Shown here in pieces: positions 6,178-19,476 of a DNA stretch of 64,000 nt. Source of the DNA: Gammaproteobacteria bacterium (GTDB lineage: Bacteria > Pseudomonadota > Gammaproteobacteria > UBA4575); assembly GCA_965222615.1 (NCBI GenBank), contig CBDCUI010000009.1:768001-832000 (forward strand), written 5' to 3'. Positions within the stretch are counted from its first letter, which is position 1; each line of letters starts with the position of its first letter. Made by a program: the position numbers and the translations under genes. The notes beneath the pieces are model-generated. The model saw nothing but the letters and a program-made list of their open reading frames with translations. It had not been told where the DNA came from and searched no databases.

Positions 6178-7005
6178 ATGAACTTAAAAGGTACACTTGA
6201 TATTGCTGGACGCTCAAACACAGGACTAGTGCGTGCAAACAATGAAGACAAAATAGGCGAAGATCAAGAAATTGGTTTAGTCGTACTAGCAGATGGTATG
6301 GGTGGCTATAAGGGTGGAGAAGTTGCAAGCCGTATTGCAGTTAATACTATTTTAGAAGAATTACGTACAGAAATTCCTAATCTCATACCAGGAGAAATAG
6401 ACGAACAAACTGGGTATACAAAGGAAAGTTTAGCTGCGCGTAAATCTATTGTTAAAGCCAACGAATCAATTTTTACAGTAAGTACAAGTGAACCACAATA
6501 TCGTGGCATGGGCACAACACTTGTAATGGGAATCTTTTACGATAACCAAATCACTATTGCACATGTCGGTGACTCAAGGATGTATCGTTATCGAGATGGA
6601 AATTTTCAACAAGTAACAGTAGATCATACTCTGTTACAGGAACTCGTTGATCGTGGTTTTTATACGCAAGAAGAAGCAAACTCATCGCTCAATAAAAATT
6701 TAGTCACGCGTGCACTAGGCATTGAAGGTAGTATCGCAGTAGATATCAAAGAAGATTTGGCAATGCCTGATGACATTTACTTGCTATGCTCCGATGGTCT
6801 GACAGATATGGTCGATGATCAGGAAATTCATGCAACGGTAACGGCATTTAAGGATAATCTTGATGAATTGGCGGATAAGTTGATTGCAATTGCTAATGAG
6901 AATGGGGGCCGAGACAACGTTTCGGTATTATTAGCAAAACCAAATAAAGAGTTTCCTGGTAAGAAAACTTGGAAGAAAAAGTTTAGTAAATTTCTCCACA
7001 AGTAG
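6178..7005 (+). CDS. PP2C-family Ser/Thr phosphatase (Stp1/PppA-like)
   Basis: RANNED, LADGMGG, HVGDSR, LCSDGL, GGRDN. Confidence 0.93.
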   Translation: MNLKGTLDIAGRSNTGLVRANNEDKIGEDQEIGLVVLADGMGGYKGGEVASRIAVNTILEELRTEIPNLIPGEIDEQTGYTKESLAARKSIVKANESIFTVSTSEPQYRGMGTTLVMGIFYDNQITIAHVGDSRMYRYRDGNFQQVTVDHTLLQELVDRGFYTQEEANSSLNKNLVTRALGIEGSIAVDIKEDLAMPDDIYLLCSDGLTDMVDDQEIHATVTAFKDNLDELADKLIAIANENGGRDNVSVLLAKPNKEFPGKKTWKKKFSKFLHK

Positions 7006-7014
7006 AATTGTGAC

Positions 7015-7971
7015 ATGCCTAAATTAATTTTAAGCGTCGATGATAAGATCATTGACGAATTCAATATAGATAAAGACACTGTCACCATCGGTCGACGAAC
7101 AGACAATGATATCTGTTTGGATAATCTTGCGATCAGTGGTTATCATTCTCAAATTACTACTGTGCTCAATGATTCTTTTTTGGAAGATTTGAACAGCACA
7201 AATGGGACATTTGTAAACTCTAAAATTGTCAAAAAGCATGCATTGAAAGATGGCGATATTATCGATATCGGAAACCATCGTATTAAATATATCAATCATC
7301 TTGCCACTAGTTCAGCCAATAGCGAATTTGAAAAAACAGTGGTAATAAGCCCCAACTACAATGAGAAAAAAATTGATGCTTCGATTGAAAACTTAGAAAG
7401 TGAAATTGAAGCGCTTATCGATACAAAAGAAGATGCCGACAATGACTCTCAAGATAGCAATAATAATGAACAAGCCGTTGCACTGATCGATGCAATCTAT
7501 GATGGACATGAAGATACCTCTCTAAAAATACCATCTATAGAAGATTCACCAGCTTCAGAAGAACCAGAGCTCAAAAAAGAATCATCTGCTGAAAATTTAG
7601 CTGATGAAAAATTAAGTTCTGAAGAAATGGGCCCTGTAGAAGCTACTATAGAAAAATCATCACCTAAAAAAGAAACTCCTTCCAAATCAGATGATAATGA
7701 AAACAAACTAGGCCGTATTCAAATTCTCAGTGGCAGTAATTGTGGTAAAGAATTAACTCTCGATAAGACTTTAACAACCTTAGGCAAGCCTGAGGTCGCG
7801 GTAGTTGGCATCACTAAACGCCGCAGTGGTTATTTCATCGTACATATCGATGGCAGTGAAGGTAATGCCTCTAGATTGAATGGTGAAATTATTAAAGGCA
7901 AAGCCCAGCCTCTAGAAGATCATGACATCATCGATGTCGCTGGGATTAAGTTAGAGTTTTTTGTCGAATAA
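7015..7971 (+). CDS. FHA-domain protein (N-terminal FHA, acidic linker, C-terminal FHA-like domain)
   Basis: IGRRTDND, SGYHS, DLNSTNGTFVN; second FHA-like fold at the C-terminus. Confidence 0.9.
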   Translation: MPKLILSVDDKIIDEFNIDKDTVTIGRRTDNDICLDNLAISGYHSQITTVLNDSFLEDLNSTNGTFVNSKIVKKHALKDGDIIDIGNHRIKYINHLATSSANSEFEKTVVISPNYNEKKIDASIENLESEIEALIDTKEDADNDSQDSNNNEQAVALIDAIYDGHEDTSLKIPSIEDSPASEEPELKKESSAENLADEKLSSEEMGPVEATIEKSSPKKETPSKSDDNENKLGRIQILSGSNCGKELTLDKTLTTLGKPEVAVVGITKRRSGYFIVHIDGSEGNASRLNGEIIKGKAQPLEDHDIIDVAGIKLEFFVE

Positions 7972-8006
7972 TCTCGAAGTATTTTTCATTAAGCTGTTTG
8001 AAACAA

Positions 8007-8510
8007 CTATAACTTATAAGTGACTGCTTTTGAGTCAAAGCATACTAGCTTGTGTGTTTTTACACTGTACTTAAATTTATGCTTTAAAAGCCTTAGCAAA
8101 TTAGATAATAACTCATTAACTGAATTAACCATAACATCAACAGTTAAAGCCCCTTCAAGCAGGACCCCTTCAAGCCCACCTTTTTGATTTACCACTGGCA
8201 CAGAGCTAACCCCAGCATCTCTCATATGTGCAATTGTCTCTATTATGTAGTCGTCTTCTACGGCAGTTAATATTTCATTACTAATAACATACTTCACAGC
8301 AACGTCATTCAGATTTATCTCATTGATCAACATATCAGTCACGACATCCCTATCTGCTAACGCGCCTATAGGTAAGTGTTGATTATCCTTATATTCAACT
8401 ACGACAATATCCCCAACGTGATTGTTACGCATAGTTTGAGCTGCTTTTTGTATTGAGTCGTCAGGTTGGCATATGACTACATTTTGATTTCTTAATTTGT
8501 CGATATACAT
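8007..8510 (-). CDS. CBS-domain protein, possibly degenerating
   Basis: AAQTMRNNHVGDIVVV...DRDVV and MRDAGVSSVPVV CBS pair; a short tandem duplication gives LEGVLLEGAL. Confidence 0.75.
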   Translation of the reverse strand: MYIDKLRNQNVVICQPDDSIQKAAQTMRNNHVGDIVVVEYKDNQHLPIGALADRDVVTDMLINEINLNDVAVKYVISNEILTAVEDDYIIETIAHMRDAGVSSVPVVNQKGGLEGVLLEGALTVDVMVNSVNELLSNLLRLLKHKFKYSVKTHKLVCFDSKAVTYKL

Positions 8511-8582
8511 AGTTTCTTACCCTTTAACTTTTAAGAGAACGTCCTTGTTCATTAGTTGTCCGTAGTATTTTTTACCAAAATA

Positions 8583-9275
8583 TTATTTAGCTGGCACAAA
8601 GATTGCTGCACGAATCGGCGGTAAAGGATTACCCATGGGATCAAGATCATCATGATCAGTAGTTAGATCTGTTATCCATGATGTATCACCAAGCATTGTC
8701 TCCATAGGAAGATCATGTATAGCCAACGCAATATGAACATCTGCCTTGAACCCATGACCTCGTTTTAATCCAACATCACTATTCTTGCCCAGTCCTTTAT
8801 TTATGTGTATTCCCTCTGGTATTTTTCCTGCAACTGTCTTGGCATGAATATTGACCACGCCATTGCCCATTCCATCGTCGGTACTAATTGCACTGCCTGC
8901 ATAATAAACTGCTGTTTGTGTGTCTGGATTTGAAATATCACTAAGAGCACACTTTGTTAATACTTCTCCATCTGGACCTTTCACTACAGTTTCATCATCG
9001 CACTTGTTTGGTTTGTTAAATATGATAAACCAAGCGGTAACGGGTACACCTGGATTTGGCACTAATGACATAATATTCGCTTTTAATTCATTTTTTTTAC
9101 GAAATAATGTCGCGGCACCTGTATATAGTGAACTCTCACTAACACCACCTTGACTACCATCAAATGTAAGCACATCTGCTGCTTGATACGCTAATTTCAT
9201 ATCGCCAGAGGAAGCATGAGCTGGAGAGCAAATAAATATTGCGGTAATAAATGAAATTAAAAATATTTTTTTCAT
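8583..9275 (-). CDS. Secreted hypothetical protein (cassette cargo 1)
   Basis: Sec signal MKKIFLISFITAIFICSPAHA; WFIIFNKPNKC...C motif; preceded by shared leader copy 1. Confidence 0.85.
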   Translation of the reverse strand: MKKIFLISFITAIFICSPAHASSGDMKLAYQAADVLTFDGSQGGVSESSLYTGAATLFRKKNELKANIMSLVPNPGVPVTAWFIIFNKPNKCDDETVVKGPDGEVLTKCALSDISNPDTQTAVYYAGSAISTDDGMGNGVVNIHAKTVAGKIPEGIHINKGLGKNSDVGLKRGHGFKADVHIALAIHDLPMETMLGDTSWITDLTTDHDDLDPMGNPLPPIRAAIFVPAK

Positions 9276-9424
9276 AAGTTATTCCCCTTCTTTTCTAATA
9301 AAAATTTTATAAAGTTATGAAAATTAGTGAATGCTGTTTCCAGCATTCAGGTTTACTTGAGCAAAAATTTATTTGCTTAAGTTACTAGTAAAGATGGGAG
9401 ATAGATAAAATTGTCAGAAAAAAT
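9276..9424 (-). repeat. Shared promoter/5'-leader module, copy 1
   Basis: Aligns along its length with 10147-10294 and 18927-19074 (ccttcttttctaat...attttataaagttatgaaa...gtaaagatggg.gata...ttgtcagaaaa). Confidence 0.95.
9392..9418 (-). promoter_or_regulatory. Predicted ECF-sigma promoter TCTGACA-N15-CATCT
   Basis: Minus strand tctgaca attttatctatctcc catct; motif recurs at four other intergenic sites in the locus. Confidence 0.8.
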
Positions 9425-9633
9425 TTTTGAGGCTAGTGAAAAGACAGATGTTTGGTACGGTTGCTTGTGCCAATAATGGTATTCAGTGGTACACAAGTTA
9501 TCTCAGTGGGTTTCAGAGTGGCCCGTAATTGACACATTGATTCAGATTAGCCTTTATGCGGCCTACCGTACTGAACAAACCGATACTTCGCTACTCCTGA
9601 AGTTCTATACCCTGCATTCAGAAATGCCCAACC

Positions 9634-10146
9634 TTAGTCATCGTCGCTTCTGTCATTATCTTCGGAGTTTAACAAGTCCAGGCGTCGGCCCTCATAGGTA
9701 ATGAATCCGAATGGAAACTCTACGTCTGGCGTACCATTCAAATCTGGAAAATCTTCGCTATTGGCAGCGTTCACGAAATACTGTTTTATACCTATGTCAC
9801 CCTTCAGAATATCGTTGTCGAGCTTCAGCTGTAACGTCGCCAACGTTATGTGCTGTTGCACTCCGGTACTGTCGTAATGGATATTGATTAGTTTAACCAG
9901 GATATTCTTGCGACTAATTTTTTCCCAGTTTCCATATGCCACTGAATCAAATCCATCACTGAAATCTGAAGTGTCCACCGACGTCGCGGTGCCATCCTGA
10001 TGTAGTGTTAAGATACGATGAAACAGGAGGTCATCTAAAATCGAAACATTACCAGGGAATACGCCAACCAGATTCGAATCCGCATCAGCACTTAATGTGA
10101 TACACAGAAATAGAATTGTCGATAAAAAACGGACTATTATTTTCAT
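9634..10146 (-). CDS. Secreted hypothetical protein, probably beta-barrel/lipocalin-like (cassette cargo 2)
   Basis: Signal MKIIVRFLSTILFLCITLSADA; LTLHQDGT...YGNWEK beta-rich pattern; preceded by leader copy 2. Confidence 0.8.
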   Translation of the reverse strand: MKIIVRFLSTILFLCITLSADADSNLVGVFPGNVSILDDLLFHRILTLHQDGTATSVDTSDFSDGFDSVAYGNWEKISRKNILVKLINIHYDSTGVQQHITLATLQLKLDNDILKGDIGIKQYFVNAANSEDFPDLNGTPDVEFPFGFITYEGRRLDLLNSEDNDRSDDD

Positions 10147-10294
10147 CTGAACTCCCCTTCTTTTCTAATAAAAATTTTATAAAGTTATGAAAATTGATAA
10201 ATACTGTTACCAATTTTTACGTTTGCTTGAGAAAATGTTTAATTACTCAAGTTACTGGTAAAGATGGGGGATAGATGAATTTGTCAGAAAAATT
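10147..10294 (-). repeat. Shared promoter/5'-leader module, copy 2 (promoter 10262-10288)
   Basis: Minus strand tctgaca aattcatctatcccc catct; same spacing to ATG as copies 1 and 3. Confidence 0.95.
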
Positions 10295-10364
10295 TTTATT
10301 ATTTTATGATTTAAAATAACCAAGAAGGCAGAAATAATATTTTGGGCTAGCAAAATACAGATGC

Positions 10365-11030
10365 TTATTGCATAACCACTAATTTATAGCGGGCTTTCGA
10401 TGTTCTTCCTTTTAAATCTGCTATCCTTACAGTTAACAAGTGTTGACCGCTCGGAAGGCTCATTTTTTTAATATTGAGTTGATTAGATTTAATCTTTGAT
10501 GATCTCAAAATACGTTCAGTTATGTCTGCATTCAATAAGCCGTATGTCAATTGAAAACTCTTTGCATCTATTTCTGAGTTTGGTGATGCTTCAAACGAGA
10601 GCTTAAACGCAAATGGTGATGTAATATTTTTTATATCTTTAGGTTTTTCGAGTGTAATTATTGGAAATTCTGGATCAATTGACATTTCTACTGCTTCCAA
10701 GGAAAGAAGTTGCTCCTTTGTCAAAGAAGCTATGTACTGATTTTCCGCATTAACATCTTTTTGGCTAATCAGCGGAAGCTGTGTAGGAACTAATTGTGTA
10801 TACAGCAAAATAGATACTGATAAAACTATAGTGGCTGCAATAGCAAAATAGGTAGGAGTGCTTAAATGTTTATTACGATCACTGGGTTCATCTGCATTTA
10901 TCTGGTTATTTACTTTTTGCATCAACTTGGATTTGAATGACTCAATGTCTGTGTCACTCACTAACGTTTCAAAATGCTTTTGTTCACGTTCTAAAGTCGT
11001 TTTCAGTTGTTCTTCAGCAGAATCACTCAT
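10365..11030 (-). CDS. Putative anti-sigma factor (short cytoplasmic N-terminus, one TM helix, periplasmic Ig-like domain)
   Basis: Directly downstream of the ECF gene; TM YFAIAATIVLSVSILLY; C-terminal beta-rich domain (LPSGQHLLTVRIADLKGR). Confidence 0.7.
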   Translation of the reverse strand: MSDSAEEQLKTTLEREQKHFETLVSDTDIESFKSKLMQKVNNQINADEPSDRNKHLSTPTYFAIAATIVLSVSILLYTQLVPTQLPLISQKDVNAENQYIASLTKEQLLSLEAVEMSIDPEFPIITLEKPKDIKNITSPFAFKLSFEASPNSEIDAKSFQLTYGLLNADITERILRSSKIKSNQLNIKKMSLPSGQHLLTVRIADLKGRTSKARYKLVVMQ

Positions 11031-11047
11031 ATTAATCTTCTACAAAT

Positions 11048-11629
11048 TTAACTAATCGTACTAATGTTTAATAAAACATCTTCACCACAAAATTTTTTTA
11101 TTAATTCTTGTAATTTCTTTCTTGCTTGTGAAACATATTCACGTGTAGCACCATAAGTCTTATCCATAAAAACTGCCACATCTTTTAGGCTCCATCCATT
11201 CAGCACTGATAATTCAATGATCAAAGCTTCATCATAAGAGCGCTTTCGAAGTGCGCTGATGGCTTCACCCAAACAATTTTCCAATAATAAATCATTAACA
11301 GTATACGTGCTCAAAATTTCTTCTAGTTGGTCGTTTTCCAACGAGTATTCTTTAATTGTGGATTGTTCTCGTAAATATTCGTTGAATGAGTTAAAAAACA
11401 TTCTCCATAAATAAGGGCGTATTTGATTTGCTTTTGCGATGAGCTTCGGTTTATTAGCTATTTTTAAAAATACGTTTTGAATAATATCCTCCGCATCGGC
11501 ATTGGATACACCCCTTTTATATAGATGACCCAGATACTTCTGCGCTAATTCATCATATAAATACGAAATGGCTTGAATCACTTGTTTCTTTTCCCCCAAT
11601 AAGTATTTTTTTATCAAAATATCATCCAT
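11048..11629 (-). CDS. ECF (group 4) sigma-70 factor
   Basis: Region 2 DAEDIIQNVFLKI...YLWRMFFN and region 4 GWSLKDVAVFMDKTYGATREYVSQARKKL; 193 aa. Confidence 0.92.
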   Translation of the reverse strand: MDDILIKKYLLGEKKQVIQAISYLYDELAQKYLGHLYKRGVSNADAEDIIQNVFLKIANKPKLIAKANQIRPYLWRMFFNSFNEYLREQSTIKEYSLENDQLEEILSTYTVNDLLLENCLGEAISALRKRSYDEALIIELSVLNGWSLKDVAVFMDKTYGATREYVSQARKKLQELIKKFCGEDVLLNISTIS

Positions 11630-11686
11630 TGACCATACTCATATTAGTGTTATCAAACATCAAATTATCTACGTATATTTAATTAT

Positions 11687-11714
11687 AGTTGCCTTTATGA
11701 AGTAAAATGTCAGA
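11687..11714 (-). promoter_or_regulatory. Putative autoregulatory ECF promoter TCTGACA-N16-CAACT upstream of the sigma gene
   Basis: Minus strand tctgaca ttttacttcataaagg caact; one mismatch and +1 spacer relative to the other sites. Confidence 0.6.
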
Positions 11715-11834
11715 ATATATTGCTTGTCAACAAGAAATATCTAATCTTTTTTCAAATCACGAAGAATTGGTTGGAGGCTATTATGCAATTAGTTACAAAT
11801 TGGTTACAACTCAGAATCCTGATATTAGTTAGAA

Positions 11835-11861
11835 TCTGACAGTTTCATCAAGTAACCATCT
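11835..11861 (+). promoter_or_regulatory. Predicted ECF promoter TCTGACA-N15-CATCT for the ompA-caspase operon
   Basis: tctgaca gtttcatcaagtaac catct; same boxes and spacer length as the leader copies but a different spacer sequence. Confidence 0.8.
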
Positions 11862-11897
11862 ATGACCATCGATTCCATGTCAGTTCACTTAAAAATA

Positions 11898-12461
11898 ATG
11901 GAATTTATAAAGTTATTTGTAACATTTGCATCCTGTTTAATAGGGACAATTATATTTGCTCAGGATGTTGATGTAATCATGGATAGTGGGACCATTGTAG
12001 AAGATTTACTAAAAGAGGATGGGATGACTCGCGGCATAAACGTTCAAGCAGTCAGTACCCCTTCATCTGATAAAACAAAGTCAGTAAGCAAAAGCGACGA
12101 AAAAAGCCCAAGTGTAGTTGCATTAAATATCCAATTTCATTTTGATTCAGCAAAATTAACAGAATCGGCTATTCTTCAATTAAATGAATTAGGTAAAGCT
12201 ATCACATCAAAACAACTTAACCATTATACATTCGAACTGATGGGTCATACCGACAGCGTAGGAAACCATGAATATAATCAATGGCTTTCTGAACAACGCG
12301 CTCTATCAACTAAGCACTATCTAATCAAAAATTTTAATGTAAAAAAGAATAAGTTGATTACATATGGTTATGGCGAAGAAAAACCACTGTTATTAAATGA
12401 TCCTACAAATAGCATTAATAGAAGGGTTGAAATACGAATACTTACAAGAACAAATAATTAA
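11898..12461 (+). CDS. OmpA/MotB C-terminal (peptidoglycan-binding) domain protein, secreted
   Basis: IQFHFDSAKL, GHTDSVG, NQWLSEQRA, GYGEEKP, NRRVEI; the ATG at 11862 abuts the -10 box, so MEFIKLF (11898) is the preferred start. Confidence 0.9.
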   Translation: MEFIKLFVTFASCLIGTIIFAQDVDVIMDSGTIVEDLLKEDGMTRGINVQAVSTPSSDKTKSVSKSDEKSPSVVALNIQFHFDSAKLTESAILQLNELGKAITSKQLNHYTFELMGHTDSVGNHEYNQWLSEQRALSTKHYLIKNFNVKKNKLITYGYGEEKPLLLNDPTNSINRRVEIRILTRTNN

Positions 12462-12490
12462 TATTCAAAAATAATAAATTGGGACCGCTT

Positions 12491-13912
12491 ATGAAATTAT
12501 ACAACAAAATAATTTTTTGTATTGCAGTCTTAAATGGGCTGTTTATTTCATGTGAAAATGTTATTGCTGCACAAAAAGCATTGTTGGTAGGTGTTGGTGA
12601 ATATCAAATACCAAACAAAGAATTACCAGGTATTGATGTTGACATACAGTTGATGAAAGAGATACTGGCAAGATTAGGTTACGCAGAAAGCGAAATAAAA
12701 ATATTACATAACAAAGATGCAACATTGCAAAATATAAAAAAAGCGATTACAAATTGGCTTGTCGACGGCGTACAAAAAAATGACCGAATTGTTATATATT
12801 TTGGTACTCATGGGAGCAGAATATACGACGTTGACGGAGATGAAGAAGATCAAGTAGATGAAGTCTTACTCGCCCATGATGCGAAGTTTTTCACAACAAA
12901 ACATGGGCGCACACTTAAAAATGTAGTTATTGATGATGATTTAGCAAATTGGCTTGCTAATATTCCAAGTGAAAATATTTTTGTTTTAGTTGATGCATGT
13001 AATAGTGGCTCGGTTACAAGGAGTGTTAAATTATCAAATTTATCCTTAGGTGTTGAGACCGCAGCAGCTAAATTCTTTTACTATGACGGCATTCCAGATG
13101 AGAGTGGCTCGACATTTACTAGGTCACTAGTCAATCGAAGTCTTGATCAAAACGTTAATTATATTGCTATTTCAGCTGCAAAAGATCATGAAATGGCCCT
13201 TTCAACTGAACAAGGAAGTTTTTTCACACTTGGTATTTTTGATGGAATAAACAAAGCATCTAACGGATCAGGCACAATTACTGTCGAGCAATTACATCGC
13301 CATGCAGATAGCTATATTGCTAAAACAATCTCAAGAGAAAAAAGATATCACCCACAACTTCATGGTAATGAATATTTAGCAAAGAAAAAATATAAACTAT
13401 TCAAGTTTATGCAAGGGCATGGCTCAAAATGGCAATCATTAGAAAAAATATCCAACCAGGTACAAGATTTAGAGTTATCTTTAAATCAAGAAGAATATGC
13501 CTTACAAGACAGTGTATATATCGCTGTAGATCTTCCTAAAGTAGGTTATCTTAATATAGTTTCAGTAAATGCATACGATCAGGGCACCATTCTTTTCCCA
13601 AATAAATTTAACTTGGATAATTATGTAAATAGTACAAACTTAACTATTCCATCAAAAAACATGCCGTTTAAGCTCGCTGCGGTTAAACCCACCGGACCAA
13701 CATTGATAGTTGGGTTCTTATCAACTGCACCGATAAATCTTTATGAACTGAGTTATGAAGGTCGTGATATCGGTGGTGCTTTAAATAAAGCTTTTGCAAC
13801 ACTATCTTACAGTGGTATTCGTGCTATAACTTTAGAATCAGAAAAAACGAAGCAAAACTATGAAGATGTTTTATACAGCAAATCTGTATACACAAATATT
13901 AAAATGAAATAA
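12491..13912 (+). CDS. Secreted caspase-family (peptidase C14, metacaspase/orthocaspase-like) protease with C-terminal DUF4384-like domain
   Basis: Signal peptide; KALLVGVGEY, YFGTHGS (His) and LVDACNSG (Cys); C-terminal GYLNIVSVNAYDQGTILFPN pattern. Confidence 0.9.
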   Translation: MKLYNKIIFCIAVLNGLFISCENVIAAQKALLVGVGEYQIPNKELPGIDVDIQLMKEILARLGYAESEIKILHNKDATLQNIKKAITNWLVDGVQKNDRIVIYFGTHGSRIYDVDGDEEDQVDEVLLAHDAKFFTTKHGRTLKNVVIDDDLANWLANIPSENIFVLVDACNSGSVTRSVKLSNLSLGVETAAAKFFYYDGIPDESGSTFTRSLVNRSLDQNVNYIAISAAKDHEMALSTEQGSFFTLGIFDGINKASNGSGTITVEQLHRHADSYIAKTISREKRYHPQLHGNEYLAKKKYKLFKFMQGHGSKWQSLEKISNQVQDLELSLNQEEYALQDSVYIAVDLPKVGYLNIVSVNAYDQGTILFPNKFNLDNYVNSTNLTIPSKNMPFKLAAVKPTGPTLIVGFLSTAPINLYELSYEGRDIGGALNKAFATLSYSGIRAITLESEKTKQNYEDVLYSKSVYTNIKMK

Positions 13913-15271
13913 ATGTATACAAAAATCACCATTATTTTAGTTTTTTTATTATCAATAAATATTTCATATGCAACAAATCGCTATGCGCTCGTTATAGGCA
14001 ATTCTGATTATCCGTTTGGTCAGCTAAGGAATCCTAGTAATGATGCACAAGATGTTGCCTCAGAATTTGAGAAATACGGATTCGATGTAGATTTAAAAAC
14101 CAATGCGACCGCATTCCAACTAAAACAATCCTTGGATAGCTTACAAAGTAAGCTGCAGTCCAGTAGAGGAATTGGCATCATTTATTTCGCTGGGCATGGC
14201 GTGCAGTTTCAAGCCGAAAACTTTTTACTCCCTGTCGATGTTTCAACTACTTCTGCAACCGAACTTAAACGTACAGCCTTATCACTAAATACGGTCGTGA
14301 ACACGTTAGACCAGGCGCAGAACAAACTCAATTTAGTCATTCTCGATGCCTGTCGTAATAATCCATTCAAGAGTAGTTCACTTACGAGTGTTTCTCGAGG
14401 TCTACAAGCCGAGGCTAAAAAAGAACAAGATGGCTTAGCCCCGGTAGCGATCAGTGTGTCGTCCGGAACGGTGTTTTGGTATGCCACGCGTCCTGGGGAT
14501 GTGGCTTTAGACGGTAGTGGTCGCAATAGTCCTTTTACTTCGAGTCTGCTGCAAGTCCTTAATAATCATGCTGTACCGGCACGCTCGATTATCAGTCAAG
14601 TTGCAATACGAATGCGTAATTTAAAAATTAATCAACAGCCCTGGCAAGAAGGTATTTGGTTAGAAGACTTTCATTTTGATGAGTCAAGTAACCATAAAAA
14701 TGTCCCCGTGCAAATCGCTAAATATGATTCATTTCAGGAAGATATATATCGTGACTATATTAAGAATTGCAAAAAGTCTGGTAAAAAATGTAAACATTTA
14801 GCTAGCGTCGAAAAAATAATTGAGGAGTCGGATAAAAAAACAACTATAGCAAACACAAAACTCGAAAATGCTGCACCTAGCAAAATTGATGGATACGATG
14901 ATTGGCTTGGGCAGTGGCAATGCACGTGGGCGCATAATGATAATTCGAATAAGGGAACAAGCATTGTTAAATTTTACAAATTTGAAAAAAATATTCTATA
15001 TGGTACTTCGAGTCTTTCGACATGCCCTCAAGCTTCTAAATTTAAATTGGATACTACTGAATCACCTTTGAAATATACATTACTCCCCTGCTGTGCATCT
15101 TGGACTTGGAAAACCACGATGTGTAATGCAATGCTTAGAATAACAATCGAAAAAATTCCTAAATTAGGAGAACAACAAGCTATGAAGTCCTCATACACTA
15201 CAGATTTTTTTAACCTTCCTTCAAGCAGTCTTAGTATAGGTGGCGAACAAACTTGTATAAAAATTTACTAG
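13913..15271 (+). CDS. Secreted caspase-family (C14, paracaspase-like) protease with Cys-rich C-terminal domain
   Basis: Signal peptide; RYALVIGNSDY, LRNPSNDA, YFAGHG, ILDACRNNP, YATRPG, NSPFT. Confidence 0.92.
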   Translation: MYTKITIILVFLLSINISYATNRYALVIGNSDYPFGQLRNPSNDAQDVASEFEKYGFDVDLKTNATAFQLKQSLDSLQSKLQSSRGIGIIYFAGHGVQFQAENFLLPVDVSTTSATELKRTALSLNTVVNTLDQAQNKLNLVILDACRNNPFKSSSLTSVSRGLQAEAKKEQDGLAPVAISVSSGTVFWYATRPGDVALDGSGRNSPFTSSLLQVLNNHAVPARSIISQVAIRMRNLKINQQPWQEGIWLEDFHFDESSNHKNVPVQIAKYDSFQEDIYRDYIKNCKKSGKKCKHLASVEKIIEESDKKTTIANTKLENAAPSKIDGYDDWLGQWQCTWAHNDNSNKGTSIVKFYKFEKNILYGTSSLSTCPQASKFKLDTTESPLKYTLLPCCASWTWKTTMCNAMLRITIEKIPKLGEQQAMKSSYTTDFFNLPSSSLSIGGEQTCIKIY

Positions 15272-15280
15272 GAGCTATAT

Positions 15281-15314
15281 TGAATAAACGCTTTTGGCCA
15301 ATAGCGTTTATTCA
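15281..15314. repeat. 34-bp palindrome tgaataaacgct-tttggccaat-agcgtttattca
   Basis: Perfect 12-bp arms 10 nt after the caspase-2 stop codon; related hairpins at 17402, 17478 and 19113/19394. Confidence 0.75.
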
Positions 15315-15356
15315 TGTAAATACATTTTTTATATAAAACCAAGATTTTATAAGAAA

Positions 15357-15384
15357 AAAATAGGCGCCCGAAGGCGCCTATTTT
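15357..15384 (-). terminator. Rho-independent (probably bidirectional) terminator
   Basis: aaaataggcgcc-cgaa-ggcgcctatttt between convergent caspase-2 and porin genes. Confidence 0.9.
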
Positions 15385-15408
15385 GGGTAAAACTAGAGTC
15401 TTATTCAG

Positions 15409-16815
15409 TTAGAATAACTGAACCAAACCCACTGCGACCATTTCAAGATCACCTCCAACACCATTACCCGCTGAATTGATACCGAAATCATAATTGGCGT
15501 TTCTGTCATTAGAGACTTCAGAGTAGATTACACGTAATTCGGTGCCGGCTGGGAAGGTGTAGAACAAACCAATGTTATACGCATCACCACTTGAACTGCT
15601 GTCGGATAGACCATTATTACAGGTACTACTACCTGCACCGGAATCACAATCCAAATCATCAGCATCCATATAGGAGAAGCGGATATCAAACGGTCCTGGA
15701 AAGTTGTGTTTACCCGATATCATCCAAGCATCGCGTTCCACTTCGTTTCTATTGCCAGCTACACCGTTACCACCGAGTATACCAGCACCTGTAGCACAAT
15801 CTTTATGAACATACTTAATTTCTTCATACATGCCGGAGAACCAAGTTGAGTGGCCATTGCCCCAATCGTGAATGTAACGACCCGCGATACGCCATGAATC
15901 ATCATCAGAATCTCTACAGCCAAAATCGGCTGCAGCCCAATCATCATGTTTTTCATAAGTGAGGGCACCCCAAATGGTGGATCTACCTTTACCGACGTCG
16001 TTTTCGTAGGCAACCCCCATAGACCAAATACGTGGGTCTATTTTTTTCGTAGTACCAGAAGCCGTGGTTACCTGCACATCGCCATTACCAGAAAAGTAGT
16101 TCAAGCCAGGGTCGTTATGAGCATTGGAGGTCGCAATACGGGCTGTAAAGCCATTCCAATTAGGTGAGAACCACTGTACCACACCGTTTTGACGTCGGTT
16201 AAAACCATTGTTTTGAGGACCAAAGTTCGCACCAAAGGGACCAAAATTGGTCGGTCCACCAAAACCACCACCGTTATCAAAACCGAAGCCACCGTTAAAG
16301 AAACGGGTACCGAAGCCGACTGAGCCCATGATGGAGCTGGTAGAATCCGCACCTGCATCACCGAAAGGGTCAATCCATGGAAATACCATTTCATTATGAG
16401 GTAGCAACCAATGAGCAAACATCACTTCGCCCCAAACACCAGCCAAGCCTAGCTTACTGTTACGATTACAGAAATCATTAAAGCCAAAAATGCCTGAACC
16501 AGTAAGTCGGTTAATAAAAAGGAATTGTTCACAACGAAAGGTTGCTATGATCGGGGTTTCGCCAACAGTAAAACCGGTATCGATTTGTGCATCAAAACCT
16601 AAATGCGCAACATTAGCACTGATACGAGACATATCTCTGTCATCCCCTGGGCCATAATAGTTTTCAGACTCTACCCATTCATATGAGTAGTTCTGATATG
16701 CATAAATAGTCCAGTTTGAGTTAGCATTACCGCCACTTATCCCTCCAGCAAATGGTGCTAGTGGTAACGCTACAAGGACGAATGCAAAAGCAGCTCTTAT
16801 TAGATTAGTTTTCAT
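15409..16815 (-). CDS. Outer-membrane porin (Gram-negative porin-like), Cys-containing
   Basis: Signal peptide; NRNSKLGLAGVWGEV, RRQNGVVQWFSPNWNGFT, amphipathic strands, terminal ...VGLVQLF beta-signal. Confidence 0.85.
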   Translation of the reverse strand: MKTNLIRAAFAFVLVALPLAPFAGGISGGNANSNWTIYAYQNYSYEWVESENYYGPGDDRDMSRISANVAHLGFDAQIDTGFTVGETPIIATFRCEQFLFINRLTGSGIFGFNDFCNRNSKLGLAGVWGEVMFAHWLLPHNEMVFPWIDPFGDAGADSTSSIMGSVGFGTRFFNGGFGFDNGGGFGGPTNFGPFGANFGPQNNGFNRRQNGVVQWFSPNWNGFTARIATSNAHNDPGLNYFSGNGDVQVTTASGTTKKIDPRIWSMGVAYENDVGKGRSTIWGALTYEKHDDWAAADFGCRDSDDDSWRIAGRYIHDWGNGHSTWFSGMYEEIKYVHKDCATGAGILGGNGVAGNRNEVERDAWMISGKHNFPGPFDIRFSYMDADDLDCDSGAGSSTCNNGLSDSSSSGDAYNIGLFYTFPAGTELRVIYSEVSNDRNANYDFGINSAGNGVGGDLEMVAVGLVQLF

Positions 16816-17075
16816 GTAATTTCCCTCCCGTGCAATTTACAGGAGCTTTTCATACGCTCCTTTAAATTGTTATTGATTTTTATTTGAAAGCTTTTAATTA
16901 AAGCTTTATGCGCAAATAAGATTTAACTTATTAACATTAGATTTTACATTAAAGTGGATAATTGATGATCAATGAATATTTATTTTTTATTGACTAGTTT
17001 ATTGACTTAATGCAATTCTTAATTTTTTTTAAAGCTCATAGTTTTTTTATTGAGAAATATAAGATATTGCTAAGC

Positions 17076-17393
17076 AATAAATTTTACGAAGGAAAGATAT
17101 TATGTCTGCTTATGAGATTTAAATAAAACTTTCGCAGCACTATCTTATAGTAGTATTCGAGCTATAACTTTGGAATCAGAAAGATAAAATTAAATGTAAC
17201 ACAAAAACCTTTAAGTTATACAGTGCATCATGCATCGACGTTGTATTATAGACAATGCACAATAAAAGTATTTACTATCGACCAGATTACTACTTCTCAA
17301 GAACAACTCATTTTCAATGCCACTTATACTAATAGCCAACACAACGGTCTCCTACTTGAGCGTGGTAAACAAACTTGTATAAAAATTTTATAA
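17076..17393 (+). pseudogene. Relic of a second caspase pair: caspase-1 3' segment fused to a divergent caspase-2 C-terminus
   Basis: 17119-17183 reads LNKTFAALSYSSIRAITLESE (cf. LNKAFATLSYSGIRAITLESE); the next frame reads KIKLNVTQKPLSYT...GKQTCIKIL* (cf. KFKLDTTESPLKYT...GEQTCIKIY*). Confidence 0.85.
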
Positions 17394-17517
17394 AACATTG
17401 TTGAACATCTGCTATGAGTGGTTACCAGACATTTCAAGTTTGTAAACCCTTGATTCCAACAAATTCGTCCCTAAATTTGCCCGCCTTCAGCCAATAGCGG
17501 CCACTAACTCTGTTATA

Positions 17518-17546
17518 AAAAAGCCCCACTATAAAGGTGAGGCTTC
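17518..17546 (-). terminator. Probable terminator of the beta-helix gene
   Basis: aaaaagccccac-tataaag-gtgaggctt hairpin with a U-tract on the minus strand. Confidence 0.6.
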
Positions 17547-17573
17547 GTAATTTAGTCGGATGACTATCTTGTT

Positions 17574-18926
17574 TTAATCGTCGTTGCCAACAAGCCTGAC
17601 TTCATTGTTGATACCTAGATCAACTACCAGTAGACAGCCCGGTGTGCTGCATGATGCGCCTGGATACACATTTACAACTTCTATTGGACCTGGAGCCACA
17701 GCAGTTACAAGGTTGTTGAAACTTGGTCCGGTAATTGGCGCACCATTGCTACCATTTTTTTCGGGCCCATTCGTGTTATCAAAAAACACATCAACATCAT
17801 TGTCTTGTAATTTTGTTTTGAGGAATCTGTTATTGCCACTAAAACTTTGTTCAACGTTGACCCCAAAGTCGCAGTTGCGTACCTCATTATTTTTCCACAC
17901 GGTATCAACTTCTTCGTTATTAGCACAAAGTCCATTGAAGCAAGCATGTATATAATTATCCTTAATTCGTGCACGAGTATTTTTCTTAGCAGAATCAGCC
18001 CCTATAGCAAAAACCGAAGCTGCTACGCTCGTGGCAATAGCGCAACCTTGATTACGAAATAAACTACCAGGTATTACCTCTTTTATACCATTTAACATGG
18101 TATTGCCTTTTACCTTGGTGTCTTCAGTGCCAAGCATTTGAACAGCATAATTGCCATATCCATTAAACAAGTTATTTTTGATCACAGTATTCTTAACTTG
18201 ATCCTCTTCTTCATTTTCGGTAACTACTTCAAAAGAAAAGGTATTAAAATTGAAGCAAATAGAACCTCCACCTAATAGCCTCACACCCGCAGAATTTATC
18301 CCTGTTATATTTGTCATTTTATTGTTCTTAACTTGAAGACGGTTAACAGAGCCTGCATTCACCCCAAAGGTGACATTATCGAAATAATTATCCTTAATGA
18401 CGATATTATTAAACGAGCCCGGTATATAATTATTTTCATCACAGTTTAAACTCGGACTATTATAATTAGTAATTGACACAGCTCGGTTAAACAGCTCGAA
18501 CTTAAGATCATGTATTTTAATGTTTTCAATGGTGCCGTTCAGAGGCGTAGGGCCGATCAAAAGCCCTCTATTTCTAAATTCTGTCGTAAAAGGATCATCA
18601 GAAAGAGGGCTACCAGGAAGACAACCAGGAGTATTTTGACCACATTCGGTACCACGCAATACAGTCCAATCATTATTAGCACCTTTTATGGTTAGGTTTG
18701 AGCGTTGAATAGAAACAAACGTATCATCAAATTGGCAAATTCCTTTGAGCTCAACGACACGATTGTTTGTATTGTCAACTGCAGCTTGAATTTTCGCTCT
18801 ATCAGATGCGATGTCGTTTTCACACTGGACCACTTGCATATTGCCGTCATTGTCGTCAGCGAAAGAAAAACTTGGTACCACCAAAAGTAATGCCAAGCCT
18901 ATTTGAATAAAGTGTATGGTTTTCAT
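17574..18926 (-). CDS. Secreted right-handed parallel beta-helix protein (pectate-lyase-like fold; cassette cargo 3)
   Basis: Signal peptide; DRAKIQAAVD cap helix; repeated IKDNYF/IKNNLF/VKGNTM/IKDNYI beta-helix rungs; preceded by leader copy 3. Confidence 0.85.
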   Translation of the reverse strand: MKTIHFIQIGLALLLVVPSFSFADDNDGNMQVVQCENDIASDRAKIQAAVDNTNNRVVELKGICQFDDTFVSIQRSNLTIKGANNDWTVLRGTECGQNTPGCLPGSPLSDDPFTTEFRNRGLLIGPTPLNGTIENIKIHDLKFELFNRAVSITNYNSPSLNCDENNYIPGSFNNIVIKDNYFDNVTFGVNAGSVNRLQVKNNKMTNITGINSAGVRLLGGGSICFNFNTFSFEVVTENEEEDQVKNTVIKNNLFNGYGNYAVQMLGTEDTKVKGNTMLNGIKEVIPGSLFRNQGCAIATSVAASVFAIGADSAKKNTRARIKDNYIHACFNGLCANNEEVDTVWKNNEVRNCDFGVNVEQSFSGNNRFLKTKLQDNDVDVFFDNTNGPEKNGSNGAPITGPSFNNLVTAVAPGPIEVVNVYPGASCSTPGCLLVVDLGINNEVRLVGNDD

Positions 18927-19074
18927 CTGAACCTCCCTTCTTTTCTAATGGAAATTTTATAAAGTTATGAAAGTTAACTAATATTGTTACCAGCATTTAG
19001 GCTTACTAGTGCAAACGCTTAATCGCTTAAGCTATTAGTAAAGACGGGGGATAAATTAAATTGTCAGAAAATTT
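18927..19074 (-). repeat. Shared promoter/5'-leader module, copy 3 (promoter 19042-19068)
   Basis: Minus strand tctgaca atttaatttatcccc cgtct; rest of module aligns with copies 1 and 2. Confidence 0.93.
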
Positions 19075-19125
19075 TCATTTAAAAAATTAAAAAGACAGCA
19101 TCTATAGCAGCGAATGTCTACTTTG

Positions 19126-19381
19126 GGCTGCCGATTCAATCGGTCAATGCAACACCTTGCTAAACTTTTAGTAATAAAGAGGTTGACTCAAACGGATGAC
19201 CATTTAGTGTTGAGTTGTTTTTGGATGAACCGGTTACATTAAATACTGCATTATTACTTGCTTCGAGCCATCTTTTATTGATCTACTCTTAAGATGTTGA
19301 TGTAATTGCATTTCTCTTAGCTTTTGCAGCCTTTTTTCACTCTATTTCAAAGTGTTGCATCGACCTATTGAGACCACAGCC
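19126..19381. mobile_element. Internally deleted IS30-family-like element (MITE-like)
   Basis: 30-bp terminal inverted repeats ggctgccgattcaatcggtcaatgcaacac / ggctgtggtctcaataggtcgatgcaacac (24/30 identical); ...GGTCGATGCAACAC resembles IS30-family ends; no transposase inside. Confidence 0.7.
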
Positions 19382-19476
19382 GTTAGCGGACATTTTAAAA
19401 TTTTATTTGAGTTTCCCAACTTGTTCCTCATTTAAGCCCACCTAACTTTAATCAGTTCCAACATCCATGTTATATC

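Follow-up and report, generated by a model that had tools for sequence, protein, structure and literature searches.

The stretch of DNA analysed here (the window) comprises 64,000 nucleotides of a gammaproteobacterium of the UBA4575 lineage (assembly GCA_965222615.1, contig CBDCUI010000009.1, positions 768,001 to 832,000). Within it, three blocks of about 150 nt, which we call modules A, B and C, align with one another over their full length, and each of them runs into the first codons of a different gene. The products of these three genes, referred to here as cargo proteins, show no similarity to one another. Judging from the letters, each block would combine a promoter of about 35 nt that depends on a sigma factor of the extracytoplasmic function (ECF) type (CTGACA, 15 nt, CRTCTTTA), a 5' leader of about 105-110 nt, a Shine-Dalgarno (SD) sequence and four codons. 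We consider it probable, with considerable room for error, that such promoter-leader blocks were copied within one genomic island onto three unrelated secreted-protein genes, and that the most conserved part of the leader, the core, serves as a translation or stability element.

Three copies of one block in front of unrelated genes

Module A occupies positions 9276-9424, module B 10147-10294 and module C 18927-19074, all on the minus strand. The preliminary description of this DNA had reported that the three stretches align end to end, and our alignment agrees. Over 165 columns, pairwise identity was 82.4% for A and B, 77.0% for A and C, and 78.0% for B and C, and BLASTN aligned 145 nt at 85% identity and 137 nt at 82%. 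When 120 nt of flanking sequence on each side was included in the alignment, 11-19 of every 20 columns were invariant inside the block, compared with 1-7 outside it. Both edges are abrupt, the 5' edge lying at AAAATTTTTCTGACA and the 3' edge at ATG AAA NNN ATA. The flank-extended alignment also bears out the earlier statement that the similarity stops just past these four codons.

Each block abuts the ATG of an open reading frame (ORF) on the minus strand, namely 8583-9275 for A, 9634-10146 for B and 17574-18926 for C. In copy A, CTGACA lies at 9412-9417, CATCT at 9392-9396 and the ATG at 9273-9275. The corresponding positions in copy B are 10282-10287, 10262-10266 and 10144-10146, with a core 16-mer at 10168-10183. 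In copy C, CTGACA is found at 19062-19067, CGTCT at 19042-19046 and the ATG at 18924-18926. From the start of CTGACA to the A of the ATG we counted 142 (A), 141 (B) and 141 (C) nt; the distances of 143, 142 and 142 nt from the -35 box to the ATG given previously differ from these by a one-base convention only.

The block is confined to these three places. The genome (G000) is a 3.1-Mb assembly of nine contigs with a completeness of 99.8%. BLASTN of the block against all of it returned three significant matches (E 1e-79 to 4e-34; next match E 0.23), and an nhmmer profile built from the three copies returned the same three (E 1e-45 to 1e-48; next E 0.56). The whole genome thus holds three copies only, every one in register with an ATG. 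In 60 relatives and all 56 family genomes, BLASTN found merely chance-sized matches of 24-31 nt (in G014, G074 and G029). A covariance model of the module matched none of the 55 other family genomes, and an exact pattern of 34 core positions had no match in collections of genome contigs and metagenome contigs. A shared 20-mer in 33 metagenome loci was set aside as chance, as all of them scored at most 13.2 bits against the module profile and matched its seed part only.

The three cargo genes encode P0001 (cargo A, 230 aa, 8583..9275), P0002 (cargo B, 170 aa, 9634..10146) and P0003 (cargo C, 450 aa, 17574..18926), all on the minus strand. By eye, each protein begins with a signal peptide (in P0001 from MKK to AHA, before SS), and the start MK(K/I/T)I is common to all three. 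P0002 contains an uncharacterised beta-rich domain, and P0003 shows beta-helix-like features. No match to a Pfam or NCBIfam family was found for any of them. Mutual BLASTP gave no similarity (E at least 1.8), and profile-profile comparison with hhalign assigned a probability of about 1%, the signal peptides alone being aligned. The earlier view that the three proteins are otherwise unrelated therefore stands at the level of sequences and profiles. AlphaFold models of P0002 and P0001 reached mean confidence (pLDDT) values of 39.3 and 33.7, too poor for a comparison of folds.

All three cargo proteins were absent from 60 related genomes (1 of 61 in each case, G000 itself). The single homologue found for P0001 is P0005, with 68% identity, encoded on a public contig of 1440 nt. 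A search of 1.84 billion representatives yielded eight remote relatives of P0002, with E values from 3e-14 to 7e-4. In some of these, 415-675 aa in length, the domain occurs two or three times. None of the eight gave an informative Pfam match above the curated cut-off, and the single-domain relatives likewise start with signal-peptide-like sequences. P0003 had no sequence homologue in a word-indexed search; its language-model features correspond to a right-handed beta-helix with a score of 0.97, a result that serves as a lead only.

A candidate ECF sigma regulon in a variable island

All three modules, their cargo genes and a sigma factor gene are contained in a variable, strain-specific island of about 11.5 kb (7972-19476). 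In four related genomes of four genera, the flanking sequences (to 7399; from 19508) lie about 0.5-0.9 kb apart, compared with 12.1 kb here. In the contig of a further relative, from a public sequencing run, position 7346 is followed by 1526 other letters and then by 20498. Because the flanks nearly adjoin in all these relatives, modules, cargo and sigma factor can be assigned to one island.

The sigma factor is encoded at 11048..11629 on the minus strand. The ORF matched TIGR02937 with 49.3 bits (cut-off 42.9) and Sigma70_r2 with 24.8 bits (cut-off 24), and Sigma70_r4_2 with 25.1 bits, just below the cut-off of 25.7. With about 190 aa and only the sigma-70 regions 2 and 4, it has the make-up of an ECF sigma factor. 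The next gene, 17 nt downstream, encodes the anti-sigma-like protein P0004 (221 aa, 10365..11030, minus strand), which has one hydrophobic span by eye; it matched no anti-sigma or other family. The pair lies immediately upstream of module B, a context that the preliminary description had missed. A divergent operon on the plus strand (11862..15271) encodes an OmpA-like lipoprotein (11862-12461) and two caspase-domain proteins, caspase 1 (Peptidase_C14 with DUF4384, 12479-13912) and caspase 2 (Peptidase_C14, 13913-15271). All three products carry export signals. The NCBIfam model 'caspase_w_EACC1' scored 40 and 60 bits with the two caspases, far under its cut-off of 140.

The first 35 nt or so of the module read CTGACA, 15 nt, C(A/G)TCTTTA. 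The pattern CTGACA-N15/16-C[AG][AT]CT occurs nine times in the G000 genome, and five of the nine sites fall within the island. Each of these five is intergenic and faces a gene: three belong to the modules, one precedes the sigma gene (11687..11713, minus strand, CTGACAT-N15-CAACT) and one the OmpA-caspase operon (11836..11861, plus strand, CTGACAG-N14-CATCT). A related pattern had four matches in the window, compared with 0.21 expected.

The same arrangement of motif and sigma gene was observed in a second genome. Among the 56 family genomes, only G014 encodes a close orthologue of the sigma factor (69% identity), and the other 21 genomes with a match did not exceed 28%. G014 and G000 have a core in common, consisting of the sigma factor, the anti-sigma-like protein (47% identity), the divergent OmpA gene and two caspases, and they differ in cargo. 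The motif pattern, which was defined on G000, gave 10 matches in the 2.4 Mb of the MAG G014, compared with two for a reversed-pattern control. Four of the 10 lie within 1.93 kb at the sigma locus. The sigma gene and ompA are each preceded by one of them, and the anti-sigma gene is followed by the other two. From the final site it is about 80 nt to a large ORF, the next gene after the anti-sigma gene, which has SpvB, FG-GAP and TcdB_mid domains. In an alignment of the intergenic region between the sigma and ompA genes of the two genomes, good conservation upstream of the start-codon region was limited to the site before the sigma gene. This site replaced an earlier candidate for the sigma promoter, TGACAAG...CATTT (11705-11729), as the one that is conserved in G014. 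A distant relative of the anti-sigma-like protein in G328 (30% identity, C-terminal part) had no such motif nearby.

Two further observations concern the G014 locus. The Tc/Rhs-like ORF exceeds 1950 aa, starts at locus position 14027 and runs off the locus (C1:916000-935900); it contains tandem repeats of 354 nt (15128-16265 of the locus). The core cassette adjoins an EamA gene and a truncated integrase (8203-8622 of the locus). From ORF sizes we had considered that the cassette might occupy the same chromosomal site in both genomes, and we rejected this, as its neighbours by Pfam are the EamA transporter and the truncated integrase, not PP2C and FHA.

According to the part of PMC7826278 that deals with target promoters, ECF sigma factors often regulate their own genes, and this habit is used to predict the promoters they read. 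Since the motif recurs at the sigma locus in two genomes, and given such auto-regulation, the 5' part of the module is most likely an ECF-dependent promoter read by the sigma factor of the island. The three cargo genes would then belong to a regulon with five promoters. The island sigma factor would read the promoters of the blocks, of its own gene and of the divergent OmpA-caspase operon, and its release by the membrane-bound anti-sigma-like protein would turn on five transcription units together, three of them encoding unrelated secreted proteins. All three cargo proteins and the products of the operon bear export signals, which is consistent with one envelope-directed regulon. The term 'plug-in regulon' used in the preliminary description captures part of this picture: a small regulon is supported, as is a promoter type that stands before different cargo in G014, but not the proposed mechanism of cargo swapping.

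Several points weigh against this assignment. Genome-wide, the nine occurrences of the motif compare with 9.3 expected from composition, so that the clustering alone is significant. Three of the five island sites are homologous copies and do not count as independent. The -35 box reads GAC, whereas AAC is typical of the -35 element of ECF promoters, and the -10 element reads CATCT in two of the three modules. Finally, the identity of the sigma factor that reads the promoter, the transcription start and the dependence on sigma are all things that we infer. A sigma-70 promoter was also considered and dropped: sigma-70-like sites numbered 34, compared with 48.2 in shuffled sequences, and the only one inside the modules was TTCACT-16-TAAAAT in copy A.

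The start of the OmpA-like gene deserves a remark. Its annotated ATG (11862-11898 region) abuts the putative -10 box of the promoter. The real start is probably Met13 (MEFIKLFVTFASC), before the lipobox; with this start, the leader would be about 30 nt long.

The leader and the origin of the copies

Between the promoter part and the start codon lies a leader of about 105-110 nt, which was found in G000 only. When the G000 modules were compared with the two extra promoters of G014, just the two boxes and a few following bases were alike. Conservation within the leader is uneven. The 40 nt that precede the SD-ATG spacer (in copy A, UUUUCAUAACUUUAUAAAAUUUUUAUUAGAAAAGAAGGGG) are invariant in 37 of 40 columns, compared with 33 of 58 in the middle of the leader (35 of 60 when counted in 20-column windows; Fisher p = 0.0002 for segments that were chosen after looking). 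In copy A, this near-invariant, AU-rich core together with the SD occupies 9284-9323. The 40-nt core looks constrained, as far as three copies allow such a judgement.

What this leader does is something that we infer, and our working reading is that of a shared element for translation initiation and mRNA stability. The 5' untranslated region of ompA in enterobacteria is about 110-130 nt long; it has one hairpin close to its 5' end and another behind it, followed by single-stranded, AU-rich sequence that carries the ribosome-binding site, and it serves an abundant envelope protein. The module may have a similar layout, with a 5' hairpin, a second hairpin and a single-stranded AU-rich region for loading of the ribosome, and its 40-nt AU-rich stretch with the SD would act in the same way. 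There is no sequence homology between the two leaders, and the ompA leader serves one gene, whereas the module precedes three unrelated ones. The leader could also be the target of a trans-acting factor, for example Hfq or CsrA, both of which the genome encodes.

Folding predictions place hairpins 1 and 2 in the variable middle of the leader. Copy A alone has both in perfect form, its hairpin 2 lying at 9328-9349 and bearing a GAAA loop, whereas in B and C they are eroded. The loop of hairpin 2 has the form G-N-purine-A in all three copies (GAAA, GUAA, GUAA), and its stem shows two compensatory pairs. A weak third helix, in which the invariant UUUCAUAACUUU box pairs with the 3' end of the SD and AUGAAA, appeared in all three minimum free energy (MFE) folds and in the consensus fold. 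A role of hairpin 2 as an intrinsic terminator or attenuator, which would call for a GC-rich stem with a U run behind it, is not borne out: it was flagged in copy A only (9328-9349), not in B or C, and terminator-like sites overall numbered 9, compared with 8.1 expected. GGA loops of the CsrA type were dropped, as they are present only in hairpin 2 of copy A.

These predictions lend a function of the leader no statistical support. Stability of the third helix was -6.1 to -8.8 kcal/mol, with z values of -1.0, -1.8 and -0.1 relative to shuffled sequences in the three copies. Folding z values were -5.1 for A, -1.7 for B and -0.8 for C, copy A alone being markedly better than shuffles. Compensatory pairs made up 2 of 36, and 291 of 500 shuffles reached this value; three sequences provide no statistical power. 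As all three copies stem from one genome, the leader is without a comparative check. Moreover, the identity of the 40-nt core might be maintained by gene conversion between copies, with no selection involved.

A separate observation concerns the -10 region of the promoter (CCCAUCUUUACUAGUAA), which is complementary to the SD region (UUAUUAGAAAAGAAGGGG) over 16 pairs in three runs (9385-9400 with 9284-9302 in copy A, and likewise in B and C). If a read-through transcript from the upstream gene included the -10 region, the SD would be masked, and transcripts from the module's own promoter would escape. The complementarity could be due to chance, since a polypyrimidine run faces a polypurine run.

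The strongest of the other explanations accepts the promoter as functional and regards the leader as mere history, that is, a segment that was duplicated twice, whose copies are alike because of their age and occasional gene conversion, and which does no more than supply an SD. The missing covariation signal and the erosion of hairpins 1 and 2 outside copy A fit this explanation, as do the quite different leaders at promoters of the same type in G014, which indicate that the sigma system needs no such leader. However, divergence among the copies is strongly uneven (37 of 40 core columns invariant next to 33-35 of 58-60), and gene conversion would have had to strike the same short tract in all three copies. 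We judge this explanation to be somewhat unlikely, but with an appreciable chance of being right.

At the other extreme, the block might be a portable cassette composed of the ECF promoter and a dedicated leader whose core is bound by a factor or folds over the start, and by means of which a mobile sigma/anti-sigma/caspase island brings newly acquired, unrelated secreted-protein genes under its regulon, the joint being at codon 4. This more far-reaching proposal is, in our estimation, unlikely.

Distinctly doubtful is a third possibility, in which the leader acts as a cis-regulatory RNA of a new type (a thermosensor, for instance, or a switch responding to a ligand or protein) that hides the start region by means of the UUUCAUAACUUU box. 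If this box pairs with AUGAAA, it would be clear why the copies stay alike exactly through the first codons, and the recurrence of this pairing in every fold, the preserved loop form of hairpin 2 with its two compensatory pairs, and the presence of Hfq and CsrA genes point in the same direction. Yet the third helix is weak and no better than in shuffled sequences, the pair statistics equal those of shuffles, and a search of Rfam gave no module match at the gathering score and none at E values up to 5, in addition to the lack of covariance model matches in the 55 other family genomes.

The remaining readings concern the way in which the blocks and the cargo came together. Most of the differences among the copies are confined to a single one: C has 20 of its own, A 13 and B 11. 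In A, five of these cluster in the SD-ATG spacer. The pattern is star-like, with no clear mosaic tracts. From copy to copy, about a quarter of the middle of the leader differs, so the copying was not a recent event. The simplest account of the sequences is that a promoter-leader-start segment was duplicated twice, locally, in a rearrangement-prone island, and that each copy was fused in frame with a gene whose product had a signal peptide beforehand. The latter is suggested by the single-domain relatives of P0002, which also start signal-peptide-like. On our preferred reading, one promoter-leader-start segment would have been copied inside the island to give three blocks, after which the middle of the leader drifted and the promoter boxes and the 40 nt by the start codon were retained.

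The island itself bears traces of rearrangement. A 282-bp repeat resembling a miniature inverted-repeat transposable element (MITE), with imperfect inverted ends of 47 nt that are 74% complementary, lies at 19113..19394, where it marks the island's right edge, and is separated from the downstream module C by 39 nt. The genome has at least five more copies of it, with 93-99% identity (on C8 and C9). The spacer of 758 nt between cargo C and a porin-like gene (16816..17573) is scrambled and holds fragments of the caspase genes: 65 nt at 17118-17182 are 89% identical to the 3' part of caspase 1 (13780-13844), and 27 nt at 17362-17388 are 93% identical to the end of caspase 2 (15240-15266). They have the appearance of remnants left by an earlier duplication of the caspase operon. 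The spacer also contains a piece of about 80 nt resembling a dispersed repeat (17417-17498).

The same spacer had yielded a candidate for a fourth, decayed module. The module 16-mer TTTATAAAATTTTTAT occurs three times in the genome, the third time at 17379-17394 (minus strand) in this spacer below cargo C, and a MAFFT alignment and nhmmer (E 0.017 within the spacer) also pointed to a relic. We largely rejected it because the aligned stretch overlaps the 27 nt that resemble the 3' end of caspase 2 (25 of 27) and the dispersed-repeat-like piece (71-76%). The resemblance is probably a patchwork combined with chance in AT-rich sequence.

The preliminary description had offered as its second option that cargo is swapped by recombination within the leader or the start of the signal peptide, so that the block would be, or ride on, a mobile or recombination-active cassette exchanging cargo at a fixed joint. 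Both joints of the block are abrupt, cargo differs between the two genomes with this sigma system, and the MITE lies only 39 nt from copy C, all of which would suit such a cassette. By contrast, the block fails as a MITE or other small mobile element, with three copies only, all in the same orientation and the same register to the ATG, and without terminal inverted repeats, and there is no recombinase among the island genes. In contigs of four public runs from one study, where uncovered parts of the island were not counted as evidence, the sites of the blocks showed no variant cargo; the runs contained either the same strain or a relative without the whole island. The expectation that cargo would differ between strains at the same site was thus not confirmed, and, given the lack of a recombinase, of inverted ends on the block and of variant cargo, an active swapping system is without support. 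We regard this option as very improbable. One observation might still favour it, namely contigs from the public runs X3 and X4 that lie on the junction of module A and the ATG, carry small indels and are several-fold deeper than the strain.

These contigs (depth 17.8 in X3 and 15.6 in X4) have deletions of 1 and 4 nt at about 9260-9269, and the depth of this strain in X3 and X4 is about 2-7. Another organism in these samples, perhaps a related and more abundant one, may carry a similar block. Public assemblies break at the MITE-like element (19113-19394), and in one contig of X3 the match ends at 19409, after which come 194 letters of unlike sequence; this may represent a variant junction at the MITE or at the edge of the island.

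That the three genes are highly diverged paralogues of which only the upstream part is still recognisable has next to no chance of being correct: all three products are secreted and start with MK(K/I/T)I, but they differ in length (230, 170 and 450 aa), align in their signal peptides only, with P0002 in a domain family of its own and P0003 showing beta-helix features, and non-coding identity of 77-82% beside dissimilar coding sequence is the reverse of what duplication followed by drift would produce.

The remaining genes of the region are listed for completeness. A CBS-domain gene (8007-8510) lies inside the island, as does the gene for the porin-like protein P0007 (15409..16815, minus strand), which has a signal peptide, a C-terminal Phe and no family match; a strong terminator is located next to it (15357-15384). 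In the left flank (6178-7971), a gene for a PP2C phosphatase precedes one with an FHA domain. Relatives retain the N-terminal part of this FHA gene up to 7399, and the remainder diverges.

Relation to known systems and significance

Unrelated genes under one sigma factor promoter are textbook knowledge. To our knowledge, it is uncommon in bacteria that unrelated genes share a homologous promoter together with a leader of 110 nt, an SD and the opening codons. Regarded as a regulon whose ECF sigma factor controls its own gene, the system is of a known kind, and what is unusual is that entire expression blocks are common to non-homologous genes.

As far as the part of PMC7826278 on ECF regulons goes, the island resembles such regulons in several respects: the gene for a small sigma factor is followed by that for a membrane protein, the same two-box motif precedes the sigma gene and its targets, and the motif is conserved along with the orthologue of the sigma factor. 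The usual ECF regulon shares only a promoter of about 30 nt, whereas here the three targets also share the leader of about 110 nt, the SD and the first codons. The GAC of the -35 box sets the module apart from the AAC consensus as well.

In Borrelia, similar promoters belonging to an upstream homology box (UHB) stand before different outer-surface protein genes of the erp/ospE/ospF type, as described in the portion of PMC7002432 considered here. The likeness consists in similar promoter sequences before several different genes of one genome. From the same portion of that source, the UHB is located on multi-copy cp32 prophage plasmids, whereas the three copies described here lie in an island between conserved chromosomal genes. 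The UHB may be regarded as the nearest documented precedent, by analogy only. UHB genes share leader peptides and form families, while in the present case the similarity ends after four codons.

Cis-regulatory leaders in Rfam offer another parallel, as one conserved leader may stand before non-homologous genes in one genome. Unlike these, the module has no Rfam match, no covariation signal and no known occurrence outside G000.

Bacterial caspase proteins have been described that are encoded beside an ECF sigma factor, and this sigma factor is proposed to switch on many genes (PMC8195603, in its passages on these systems). The partners named there are EACC2/TRADD-N and TPR proteins, whereas the caspases of the island carry signal peptides and are accompanied by an OmpA-like lipoprotein.

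The system is small, with one sigma factor, one anti-sigma-like protein and five promoters. If the 40-nt core is a binding site or a switch, it would constitute a new post-transcriptional element; otherwise, the blocks would be the outcome of ordinary local duplication in a variable island. Should the block be a portable cassette after all, the Tc-like toxin of G014 and the three small proteins described here would be alternative payloads of one delivery-and-control module. On the preferred reading, that of blocks copied within the island, the three modules would provide a natural example in which a regulon expands as an entire expression block is duplicated, instead of a new promoter having to evolve. 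They also draw attention to an uncharacterised ECF group that is linked with exported caspase-like peptidases and variable secreted cargo, including a Tc-like toxin in G014.

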